Virus record (IMG/VR): IMGVR_UViG_2840399886_000001 | Location: 1 to 28,693 of that record | DNA from: a virus | DNA length: 28,693 bases | Reading direction: 5' to 3' (one strand) | Shown here: piece after piece, positions 26,338-28,564 of the stretch | Layout: every line of letters begins with the position of its first letter | Position numbering within the stretch: position 1 is the first letter of the stretch | The notes under the pieces: generated by a model | The model's input: the letters and a program-made list of their open reading frames with translations, nothing else | Database searches by the model: none | What the model was told of the DNA's origin: nothing | Program-made: the position numbers and the translations under genes

Positions 26338-27189
26338 ATGGAGATTATTACTGGATATGTAGGAAAGAAGCATGTGACATCGGAACAGGAAAGAGACATC
26401 AATCAAGGCATTGTAGGCCCAGGATCTTACGTATTGAAGACGGGCATGCAAATGGAAGCAGAAGTTTCTTCTAACAATGAAATTAAGATCAGAGATGGAG
26501 TGCTGATGCATCAGGGATGCGCTGCATCAATTAAAAAGAATACTTACGATTCATTAACCATCATCAATGGTAGTCAGGGCATGAAGCGTATTGACTTAAT
26601 TGTTGCAAGATATGAAAAGAATCGTGATGATGAAACGGAAAGACTTGGATTAAAAGTTATCCAGGGAACACCGACAGAGTCCAATCCGGCAGCTCCGGAA
26701 TATACAGAGGGAAGTATTCAAGCAGGAGATTACATTGCAGATATGCCGATGTATCAAGTGATTATCAATGGATTAAACATTACAGAGGTAAAGCGATTGT
26801 TTGAAGCTGAACCGGATATCGACACTTTGAAAAAAGAGTTTGCTGAATTAAATGGCAAGATGGAAAATCAAAAGCGCAAATGGACAAAGCTTTGTGAGAT
26901 TGCCGGCAACCAAAATTCCTCTAAAACGTTCACTGTAGAGGATTTAAGCGGTTATTCCGAGATATTGCTGACTTGCGGACCTGCGGTAATACATCAAACA
27001 GGACGCATCCTTGGTTCCTCGACAATCCCTATAAAATTATGGAATGCTTGCAATACTGATTACAGTAATGGCTACTTTCAGTCTACGTATGGATCCAATA
27101 CATACATCGCGGGTGTAACAAGATTGTCTGATACATCCGTGAAGTTATATGCGAATTCCAGTACACTTGCTGGCTTGTATGTCCGCTAA
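26338..27189 (+). CDS. Tail fibre / receptor-binding protein (currently expressed form)
   Basis: 283 aa; last structural gene. Constant N-terminal 174 aa, then a 109-aa C-terminal domain encoded inside the invertible segment. Confidence 0.65.
   Translation: MEIITGYVGKKHVTSEQERDINQGIVGPGSYVLKTGMQMEAEVSSNNEIKIRDGVLMHQGCAASIKKNTYDSLTIINGSQGMKRIDLIVARYEKNRDDETERLGLKVIQGTPTESNPAAPEYTEGSIQAGDYIADMPMYQVIINGLNITEVKRLFEAEPDIDTLKKEFAELNGKMENQKRKWTKLCEIAGNQNSSKTFTVEDLSGYSEILLTCGPAVIHQTGRILGSSTIPIKLWNACNTDYSNGYFQSTYGSNTYIAGVTRLSDTSVKLYANSSTLAGLYVR
26838..26858. repeat. Left inverted repeat (IR-L) inside the fibre gene
   Basis: GTTTGCTGAATTAAATGGCAA. The 13-nt core AATTAAATGGCAA (26846-26858) is perfectly complementary to 27514-27526. 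Confidence 0.85.
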
Positions 27190-27513
27190 TCAGTTACCCA
27201 GCAGGCTGTAAATGAAATATAATTTCCAGTATTTTTATTACAGTACAGCGTCACTACACCTGCATCGTTTACGAATATTCGGCTACCAGGATTTCCGGAA
27301 CTATCGAATTGATCAATGCCACTTGTTCCGAATGATATAGCTATGGTATGTGGCGGAAGAAATCCTTCTTGGATGGTGCCAATCACTCGACCATTAACAG
27401 CACCTTGTCCCTTTTTGTAATTCGTAACATTGAAGACGACCATCTTACCCATCTTGTACAGCTGGTATTCTGTGATGGGATTGTTTTGATCGGCAGAGGT
27501 CAATATTCCAGAT
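26859..27513. other. Predicted 655-bp invertible segment carrying two alternative fibre 3' ends tail-to-tail
   Basis: Bounded by IR-L and IR-R. The two cassette stops overlap in CTAA (27186-27189). Confidence 0.6.
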
Positions 27514-27524
27514 TTGCCATTTAA
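27186..27524 (-). other. Silent alternative tail-fibre C-terminal cassette (no start codon or RBS of its own)
   Basis: The minus-strand frame is open from 27524 (LNGKSGILTSADQ...FTACWVTD) and is preceded by TAA. The LNGK codons lie in IR-R in the same frame as ELNGK of the fibre gene. Confidence 0.65.
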
Positions 27525-27534
27525 TTAAGTAAGC
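27514..27534. repeat. Right inverted repeat (IR-R)
   Basis: TTGCCATTTAATTAAGTAAGC. Its reverse complement matches IR-L at 18 of 21 positions, with a 13-nt perfect core. Confidence 0.85.
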
Positions 27535-27577
27535 GGATGGCAATATGCTACACTCAAATCAAAAAAGGAGTGTGGCT

Positions 27578-28564
27578 ATGGAACAGAAAATCATGGAAGT
27601 AATGCGACGGATGCAGGACATGTTGTCAGAAGAACAACTCCGGGAATTGCAGTCAGCTCTCCGGGTGACGTTCGATGGATGCGAGCTACAGCCAAGAAGC
27701 GAGCTGATGGTGTTGGATGATAGTTGGCAAGGGGATCTGGAAGATTTTCTGATGTCAAAAGCACTGGAAGGAAAGAGCAAGGCGACAATCATCCGGTATC
27801 GGTACGAGCTGGAAAGATTGCTATCGTACATCAATAAGGCAGTGGTCGATATTACAGACGCTGATATATCGAATTATATGAGGACATACAAGAGAATTCG
27901 GAACATTAAAAACAGCACTCTTAAAGGTGTGCGGTCGATATATAGCAGCTTCTTTTCGTGGCTGCGTGATCGAGACCGGATCCGAAAGAATCCGATGGTG
28001 TTGGTGGAAGACATTAAGGTTCCAATCAGGGTGAGAGAGCCGTTCACGGATGCGGAGCGAGAGAAACTTATGAGAGAATGCCGGACGCTTCGGGATAAGG
28101 CTATGATGGAATTTCTGTATTCCACAGCTGTCAGAGTTGGAGAATTGGTAAAGCTGAACCGGGGCGACATCAGATTTTCCACAAAGGATCTGATTGTATG
28201 TGGTAAGGGCGACAAGGAACGAGTTGCTTATTTGAATGAACGTACTCACATGTACCTGTTGGAATATCTGGAGAGTCGAACAGATACGAATCCAGCACTG
28301 TTCGTGTCGCTCAGATCACCGCATGAAAGACTGACCGACAAAGGTGTAGAAGATATTGTACGTAGGACCGGCAGAAGAGTTGGCGTGAAAGCGTACCCGC
28401 ATAAGTTCCGAGGTACATCAATTACCAATGCTCTCAATAGAGGAATGCCATTGCAGGAAGCATCCTGTATGGCAGGTCATGTCAAATCAGACACAACATT
28501 AAGGTATGCTCAGTTGGATCAGGATTCAGTGAGATACCATCACAAGAAATATTTAAGCGCATAA
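27578..28564 (+). CDS. XerC/D-like tyrosine recombinase; candidate fibre invertase
   Basis: Start at MEQKIMEV with AAAAGGAG 7 nt upstream. Catalytic residues: AVRVGEL (Arg), GKGDKER (Lys), HKFRGT (His-x-x-Arg), GHVKS (His), LRYAQ (Tyr). Confidence 0.85.
   Translation: MEQKIMEVMRRMQDMLSEEQLRELQSALRVTFDGCELQPRSELMVLDDSWQGDLEDFLMSKALEGKSKATIIRYRYELERLLSYINKAVVDITDADISNYMRTYKRIRNIKNSTLKGVRSIYSSFFSWLRDRDRIRKNPMVLVEDIKVPIRVREPFTDAEREKLMRECRTLRDKAMMEFLYSTAVRVGELVKLNRGDIRFSTKDLIVCGKGDKERVAYLNERTHMYLLEYLESRTDTNPALFVSLRSPHERLTDKGVEDIVRRTGRRVGVKAYPHKFRGTSITNALNRGMPLQEASCMAGHVKSDTTLRYAQLDQDSVRYHHKKYLSA

Follow-up and report, generated by a model that had tools for sequence, protein, structure and literature searches.

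The closest described counterpart of the system reported here is the Rin shufflon of Bifidobacterium breve and Bifidobacterium longum prophages (Mavrich et al. 2018, Sci Rep, PMC6109161), in which an armless tyrosine invertase acts with 11-bp rix sites on a receptor-binding protein (RBP) made of a 168-residue constant part and variable cassettes of 95-100 residues. Inversions were seen both between prophages and in virion reads, and the authors claimed the first phage-encoded tyrosine invertase (PMC6109161). A similar system was described in clade-1 prophages of Eggerthella lenta (PMC8778435). In this study, a 28,693-nucleotide stretch of viral DNA, positions 1 to 28,693 of the IMG/VR record IMGVR_UViG_2840399886_000001 (hereafter the window), was analysed computationally, with a focus on an RBP gene and the tyrosine recombinase gene next to it. 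The original prediction had regarded the architecture of this locus as not well described, a view that the publication of Rin in 2018 and the E. lenta report overtake. The locus is likely one arm of a Rin-like RBP shufflon in a Dorea (Lachnospiraceae) siphoprophage, driven by the adjacent recombinase, and the inversion itself is well supported.

The locus has the functional features of a Rin-type RBP shufflon that were examined, and there is distant homology between its constant domain and the one of a Rin-type locus. As in Rin, the phage encodes, next to the RBP locus, an armless (XerD-like) tyrosine recombinase that differs from the prophage integrase. In both systems the N-terminal part of the RBP is constant (168 aa in Rin, 174 aa here) and is combined with promoterless head cassettes of ~95-110 aa, each of which begins with a short crossover site that also occurs within the RBP gene, and genomes differ from each other by inversions at the sites. 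Over residues 3-174 the constant domain is 28% identical (E 8e-15) to the product of the Rc-like gene in Bifidobacterium phage PMBT6, the phage used for this comparison, and the crossover falls at the equivalent residue. What is new is the host, which belongs to Bacillota (Lachnospiraceae) and not Actinomycetota; the recombinase clade, whose member here is not orthologous to the PMBT6 Rin-like integrase (only a 37-residue match, pairwise E 0.047); the site, whose short consensus CTKAAYTAARTRGCAA is unrelated in sequence to rix, TTCCCTAACCC; the position of the recombinase between two invertible segments, each a convergent cassette pair, whereas Rin is a tandem array with the recombinase at one end; and the site-bounded derivatives formed by deletion between direct sites. 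Tyrosine-recombinase RBP shufflons are thus not confined to Actinomycetota prophages. A survey of gene-altering programmed inversions (Milman et al. 2023, PMC9881135), in which tail fibre proteins are an enriched target class, does not describe this Lachnospiraceae family, and a literature search for the same system in Bacillota or in this family found none, most subscription journals being outside its coverage, so that this absence is not proof.

In its current orientation, the RBP gene (26338-27189, + strand, 283 aa) consists of a constant part of codons 1-174 (26338-26859), comprising a shoulder domain and a junction helix (residues 161-173), followed by head cassette A (26860-27189, MENQKRKW...LAGLYVR, 109 aa), which is expressed now. 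Head cassette B (27186-27512, - strand, SGILTSADQ...CWVTD, 108 aa) is silent and lies tail-to-tail with the RBP gene in an antisense frame of 27524-27186, the two stop codons overlapping in CTAA at 27186-27189. Site 1, the crossover site of the expression site (CTGAATTAAATGGCAA, 26843-26858, +), covers codons A-E-L-N-G-K, and site 2 (CTTAATTAAATGGCAA on the minus strand) lies at 27514-27529. The two contain a perfect 13-bp inverted repeat, AATTAAATGGCAA, at 26846-26858 (+) and 27514-27526 (-), with L-N-G-K read in frame at both copies. Over 21 nt the extended repeat arms match at 18 positions, and a repeat search extends the inverted repeat to 19 nt with 89% identity (26840-26858 / 27514-27532). 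At up to one mismatch, the 13-mer occurs only twice in the 28.7-kb window against an expectation of 0.14, and 2 of 100 shuffled windows reached two copies. Cassette B has no start codon, and an in-frame TAA lies 5' of it. When the 655 bp at 26859-27513 are inverted in silico, the reading frame is preserved and the product has 282 aa, with residues 1-174 unchanged ahead of SGILTSADQ...CWVTD. All of this agrees with the original prediction, including a faint motif, D..V.LY.N..T, common to both cassettes, except that the motif is one residue off in the second cassette. A sigma-70 scan revealed no promoter for the cassettes, and an Rfam search gave no match. The possibility that cassette B is an independent antisense gene was rejected, because every silent cassette starts at a site, with stop codons ahead of it and no start codon of its own.

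Both orientations of the segment occur in nature, with breakpoints at the sites. When the predicted chimera was searched against 5.8 billion proteins, the flipped protein was found full-length at 100% coverage in P0001 (98% identity), P0002 (96%) and P0003 (89%), all of which express cassette B fused to the same N-terminus, while the native-orientation protein corresponds to P0024, annotated from Dorea sp. AF36-15AT. P0002 is encoded on a metagenome scaffold, L094, that follows the window collinearly up to 26858 (97.3% identity), is reversed over 26840-27532 (97.7%, 693 bp) and becomes collinear again from 27514 (98.8%). Its breakpoints are exactly the repeat arms, the left at site 1 and the right at site 2. 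Among 80 viral contigs gathered as relatives by the N-terminus, the same inversion separates L054 and L078 (99.9% identity over 826 bp, with collinear flanks) as well as the pairs L066/L067, L053/L054 and L041/L045. The flipped natural versions bear out the claim that an invertible cassette swaps the C-terminal ~108 aa of a tail adsorption protein, with the inverted repeat as the exchange point.

It is hardly credible that these apparent inversions are assembly artefacts of the inverted repeat, even though they come mostly from short-read metagenome assemblies and one locus, L056, resembles a chimeric tail-to-tail join. A repeat of 13-19 nt is shorter than usual assembly k-mers, so that no graph ambiguity is expected, the same junctions were seen repeatedly, in samples and sources that are independent (Logan, ENA, IMG/VR and NCBI genomes), and the recombinant open reading frames (ORFs) are all in frame. 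We also consider it very improbable that the locus is a frozen relic, in which the orientations seen elsewhere would be old rearrangements or products of phage-phage cassette exchange, with no ongoing programmed switching. L094 differs from the window solely by the inversion between flanks of 97-99% identity, the L054/L078 inversion comes with 99.9% cassette identity, the recombinase ORF is intact with all catalytic residues, and the isolate contig breaks at site 3, as a mixed-orientation population might cause. A relic would nevertheless fit the facts that the two orientations are known from comparison between assemblies, that many relatives have lost the recombinase, and that mosaic boundaries at the sites show horizontal module exchange too.

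The exchanged part of the RBP is probably its receptor-binding head, because the repeat lies at the shoulder/head junction. AlphaFold predicted a common layout for the native protein (mean pLDDT 74, above 90 in the N-terminal domain) and the flipped-state protein P0001 (mean pLDDT 86.7), with a beta-sandwich domain followed by a helix (residues 161-173) and a beta domain at the C-terminus. Foldseek matched both models to the RBP of lactococcal phage p2 (prob 1.0, E down to 2e-6), the RBP of phage 1358 and SPP1 gp22, with the phi812 baseplate also among the top matches of the native-protein model, and matches at prob 1.0 to 1zru, 2x53, 2bsd and 4l92 agree with a p2/1358-type RBP fold. The head domain of P0001 resembles the TP901-1 and p2 RBP heads, the head alone matched 2bse_A (TMt 0.66) and 4ios (TMt 0.64), and one alternative head carries Pfam PF21454 MSP1_barrel. 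As judged from these models, the gene at 26338-27189 is a lactococcal-p2/1358-type baseplate RBP with a constant shoulder and a swapped head, and the label of tail fibre given to it earlier does not hold, the predicted fold not being that of a long fibre. The upstream tail module, consisting of a tape-measure-like gene (22635-24503, +, 622 aa), Dit (24500-25339, +; PHROG phrog_33 distal tail protein, 7e-20) and a Tal-like minor tail protein (25330-26337, +; PHROG phrog_538, 1e-75), with a weak match to Pfam Sipho_Gp37 in the module, places the next gene in the RBP position of a siphophage baseplate operon.

Many heads are combined with this shoulder. PHROG matches cover residues 1-180 only, and three PHROGs (9994, 25635 and 13141) have that N-terminus. 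The 61 proteins with N-termini at least 90% identical to that of the window fall into 13 C-terminal head clusters, while their constant part is 94-98% identical. Each of the four cassettes of L001 and of L003, including the silent ones, is expressed elsewhere on the same N-terminus, and the cassette A fusion is also found in P0069 (96% identical) and P0121 (87%). Head cassette B also occurs nearly invariant on far more divergent shoulders (P0004-P0013 and P0084-P0098; overall 57-69% to P0001), suggesting that this head is more conserved than the constant part and is exchanged independently of it.

The adjacent gene (27578-28564, +) encodes a 328-aa Xer-like tyrosine recombinase, the presumed invertase, with PF00589 Phage_integrase (Pfam, 1e-27) and SAM_4 and without an arm-binding domain. 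Its ORF is open from 27545, and ATG 27578 is the more likely start because a Shine-Dalgarno motif, AAGGAG (27565-27570), lies 7 nt upstream and the resulting N-terminus MEQKIMEV is common to the homologues. As proposed earlier, the protein carries the complete R-K-H-R-H-Y set (R186-K210-H275-R278-H301-Y310), is a tyrosine and not a serine enzyme, with only tyrosine-recombinase domains and no resolvase/invertase domain found, and is distinct from the prophage integrase that lies outside the switch (699-1817, -; Pfam Phage_integrase, SAM_3 and Int_M), to which it shows no similarity past family level. The NCBIfam scores, 192 bits for XerA_Arch (cut-off 220), 134 for XerC (335) and 125 for XerD (330), are all under the equivalog cut-offs, the nearest family being archaeal XerA, in line with a match to XerA in PDB 4a8e (7e-25). 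In the closest relatives, a 123-aa gene, a holin (PF05105) and an endolysin-like protein come after the locus. Because these phage lysis genes follow it, the recombinase is internal to the phage, which rules out that it is the integrase of a neighbouring element. Distant homologues in Clostridium phage phiCp-D and Terrisporobacter phage TPELB_ph1 were uninformative, lying between tail and lysis genes without cassettes or site pairs. A blastn search of the locus against GenBank phages gave short matches only (~50 bp), and no record turned up when the recombinase was looked up exactly under each of three possible starts, so that the prophage part downstream of the contig end was not recovered.

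The association between this recombinase and the sites is strong. In the set collected by N-terminus, a recombinase homologue (59-98% identity) lies 0.6-0.9 kb past the junction in 18 loci, two of which are cut by contig ends. In the 16 uncut loci, L094 and the window (18/18), the repeat occupies the same codons and recurs just 5' of the recombinase. In a recombinase-based scan of 58 loci, nearly all loci with homologues of at least 63% identity have the site order (+)(-)[Rec](+)(-), and no such arrangement was found in that scan at 13 loci with tyrosine recombinases of at most 42% identity. In Lachnospiraceae genomes, homologues of 63-66% identity adjoin other constant genes, namely a 760-aa DUF859 fibre (L090), a collagen-like protein (L087) and a short protein (L085), each with a site encoding E-L-N-x-K. 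The presence of the site in unrelated constant genes suggests that the recombinase, and not the shoulder domain, is what the site moves with. We infer, with reasonable support from this co-occurrence, that the adjacent recombinase is the catalyst.

In the proposed mechanism, the RBP would be built of the constant shoulder with its junction helix (1-174) and an exchangeable head domain, and the ~16-bp site would be placed at the junction (A-E-L-N-G-K) and, inverted, at the 5' end of the promoterless and start-less cassette. The adjacent Xer-like recombinase would recombine the two sites and invert 655 bp, thereby replacing head A (109 aa) by head B (108 aa) and presumably changing the adsorption specificity of progeny virions, and a change of host range may follow. 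With sites 3 and 4 and two further cassettes, as in the relatives, four alternative heads per genome would become available.

Several observations weigh against this reading. The inversions are differences between assemblies and not reads from the Dorea culture, and the evidence that the recombinase catalyses them is its genomic association with the sites. The sigma-70 scan gave no promoter-like site for the recombinase. Recombinase and RBP are mostly co-oriented, with ~35 co-oriented loci to 1 opposed in the recombinase scan, plus L090, a bias that is unexpected if inversions happen as often between sites 1 and 4 as between sites 1 and 2. Finally, loci without a recombinase are found in both orientations (L043 versus L045/L046; L015/L016 versus L028), which indicates that inversion needs no recombinase in cis; these loci may have arisen by separate deletions or have been inverted by a recombinase supplied in trans.

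The last of these observations would also fit inversion by another enzyme, from the host, a co-resident prophage or the prophage integrase, or by RecA, with the adjacent Xer-like gene serving otherwise, for example by resolving phage genome multimers or moving its own module. A subfamily within L015-L031 (L015, L016, L019-L024, L028, L030 and L031; ~4470-5330) would fit it as well. Its members have a tail-to-tail silent cassette and a 45-nt inverted repeat, their exchange point is a block, AAATAAGGATTTG, ~25 nt 5' of the usual site, an 853-bp inversion with 99.9% identity separates L016 from L028, and no homologue of the recombinase is present within 4 kb. A bifidophage inversion locus without a flanking recombinase has also been described (Mavrich et al., PMC6109161). 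This explanation nevertheless looks unlikely for the window, since the 16-bp site is found strictly together with this recombinase clade, does not accompany more distant tyrosine recombinases and keeps this partner whichever constant gene houses it, and since the recombinase-less loci L053 and L045 look like products of deletion between sites 2 and 4. For the RecA route, a stretch of identity of 13-19 bp would be very short.

Two loci in which the recombinase is antisense to the expressed fibre gene are L090:2663-7416 (Lachnospiraceae bacterium CE91-St61, AP025573.1), whose site-4 junction reads FNELNSKLDY, and L128.

The window very probably has the same four-site arrangement as its relatives beyond the contig end, and the claim of a minimal two-state switch was therefore not upheld. 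Sixteen relatives among the viral contigs have enough sequence 3' of the recombinase; 14 of them carry sites 3 and 4, and the other two stop after site 3. Sites 3 and 4 flank two more convergent start-less cassettes that begin with L-N-G-K or L-N-S-N, and in L001 the four sites lie at 4509(+), 5126(-), 6303(+) and 6866(-). A terminator-like hairpin (28622-28642, +) follows the recombinase gene in the window. Comparison of 28565-28693 with L001:6167-6320 and L003:6165-6320 showed that the window is collinear with both, apart from one 1-nt gap and a few mismatches, to its last base, ...TTCAAAGGAG, and that L001 and L003 go on with TGGTTCTTAATTAAATGGCAAG into the third site and then diverge from each other. 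The window contig thus ends (28686-28693, +) 8 nt before the position of site 3, and from this alignment its continuation past 28693 is expected as TGGTTCTTAATTAAATGGCAA. The break at this point suggests an effect of a mixed-orientation population or of the repeated junction on assembly, and the shufflon accounts for the recurrent contig breaks at the locus. Cassette pairs found in segment 1 of one genome occur in segment 2 of another (L005 versus L007; L054 versus L067), as expected from an inversion between sites 1 and 4 followed by one between sites 2 and 3.

The consensus of 69 distinct site sequences is T.CTgAATTAAaTAGCAA.tTa, with ~16 conserved positions, a weakly conserved outer flank and a variable, A/T-rich cassette side. 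The blocks of identity between exchanging sites are AATTAAATGGCAA for sites 1 and 2 of the window, AAATAGCAA in the L005 group and TAGCAATTT for sites 1 and 4 of the L054 group. Recombining sites need identity across the overlap region. If the register is common to all sites, the crossover probably lies in the 6 nt T-R-G-C-A-A at the cassette-proximal end, and the site would be asymmetric, with one conserved and one cassette-specific arm. These comparative data place the crossover away from the centre of the site, contrary to the dyad TTGC-N11-GCAA, which had been proposed as the core. The dyad was rejected because its outer TTGC is present only at the left site and missing from sites 2-4, relatives included, and because cassette-exchanging sites differ centrally, which is not tolerable in the overlap region of a tyrosine recombinase.

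Sites 2 and 4 are direct repeats, as are sites 1 and 3, and a recombinase is missing from some relatives that have the same site pair. The right-hand site of L053 and L045 combines the outer flank of site 4 with the inner cassette of site 2, suggesting that they arose by deletion between the direct sites 2 and 4 with loss of the recombinase and two cassettes. The comparisons concerned are L053:5290-5314 with L054:5287-7147, and L045 with L041. These natural deletion derivatives bear on a question raised for Rin, namely how an armless recombinase favours inversion over deletion.

The module also appears to have moved between phages. In L096, a block of 96.8% identity to the window starts exactly at site 2 (27514), while the RBP shoulder region is ~69% identical in DNA. 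The recombinase modules of L096, L097 and L098 are 92-97% identical to that of the window and stand beside RBP shoulders of 35-49% identity, with recombinases of 96-97% identity adjoining shoulders of just 35-49%. A high-identity block that starts at site 2 indicates, on this sequence comparison, site-bounded modular exchange between phages. It is possible, though rather doubtful, that the recombinase and cassettes form a site-bounded mobile module that re-enters the RBP genes of other phages at the junction site. The recombinase could then excise a circle with itself and two head cassettes, leaving recombinase-less two-site loci. The near-identical recombinases beside divergent shoulders, the similarity blocks bounded by sites and the same site in unrelated fibre genes would fit such a module, which, if real, would amount to an integron-like exchange of receptor-binding heads between divergent gut phages.

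Systems more remote than Rin share parts of this design. Gin (Mu), Cin (P1), Pin (e14) and Min (p15B) are serine invertases that work with a Fis-dependent enhancer and have crossover sites of 2 bp. In the Mu G, P1 C, e14 and p15B segments, as here, inversion swaps the C-terminal receptor-recognising part while the N-terminal part stays, and Min of p15B is likewise multi-cassette. Unlike in these systems, the enzyme here belongs to PF00589 with an R-K-H-R-H-Y active site, the target is the baseplate RBP of a siphophage where those systems act on the long fibre of a myophage, and inversion does not carry a tail-fibre assembly gene along. The Rci/sfx shufflon of PilV on IncI plasmid R64 also uses a tyrosine recombinase and multiple inversions to exchange adhesin C-terminal segments, but it is plasmid-borne and targets a pilus adhesin, and the likeness noted here is one of arrangement, the best family matches of the recombinase being Xer-type. 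In the asymmetric sfx sites of Rci, a short crossover region separates a conserved arm from a cassette-side arm that is not conserved, and the sites here appear to be asymmetric as well when compared with each other. Rci is reported to avoid deletions between direct sites, whereas such deletions occur here. Tyrosine-recombinase shufflons that act on hsdS, in the Type I restriction-modification systems of Bacillota and Mycoplasma, and other gene-altering programmed inversions resemble the locus in the in-frame exchange of specificity domains through short inverted repeats within the coding sequence, in silent half-genes lying tail-to-tail and in an adjacent recombinase, and differ in the target gene and its biological role.

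RBP shufflons of this kind are common in human-gut Lachnospiraceae prophages, with >45 loci in IMG/VR and thousands of constant-domain homologues. One prophage genotype can yield virions with up to four receptor-binding heads, which bears on host-range prediction, metagenomic phage-host assignment and strain-level virome dynamics. The compact recombinase, the 16-bp site pair and the many natural heads are also a candidate tool for RBP swapping in Bacillota phages.

Further loci show related arrangements. In L056:4001-7631 (IMGVR_UViG_3300045988_035308), two complete RBP genes converge (4001-4906, +; 4910-5794, -), with N-termini 60% identical and each with its own upstream tail genes, so that either the assembly is a chimera joined at a shared cassette or the locus shows how silent cassettes arise. 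The cultured C. scindens phage phiCs5676-1 (Clostridium phage, L084:3998-5133, OR574845.1) encodes an RBP homologue whose shoulder is 42% identical. Behind this gene come an antisense gene of 104 aa, lying tail-to-tail with it, and a 'transposase', so that the phage may carry a related cassette arrangement. In PMBT6 (L083:4484-5512, MK932884.1), rix-like repeats of TTCCGTAACCC are present inside a 264-aa gene and before two small downstream genes, and inverted beside a minus-strand 'integrase'; from these repeats, PMBT6 apparently has an unannotated Rin-type shufflon.

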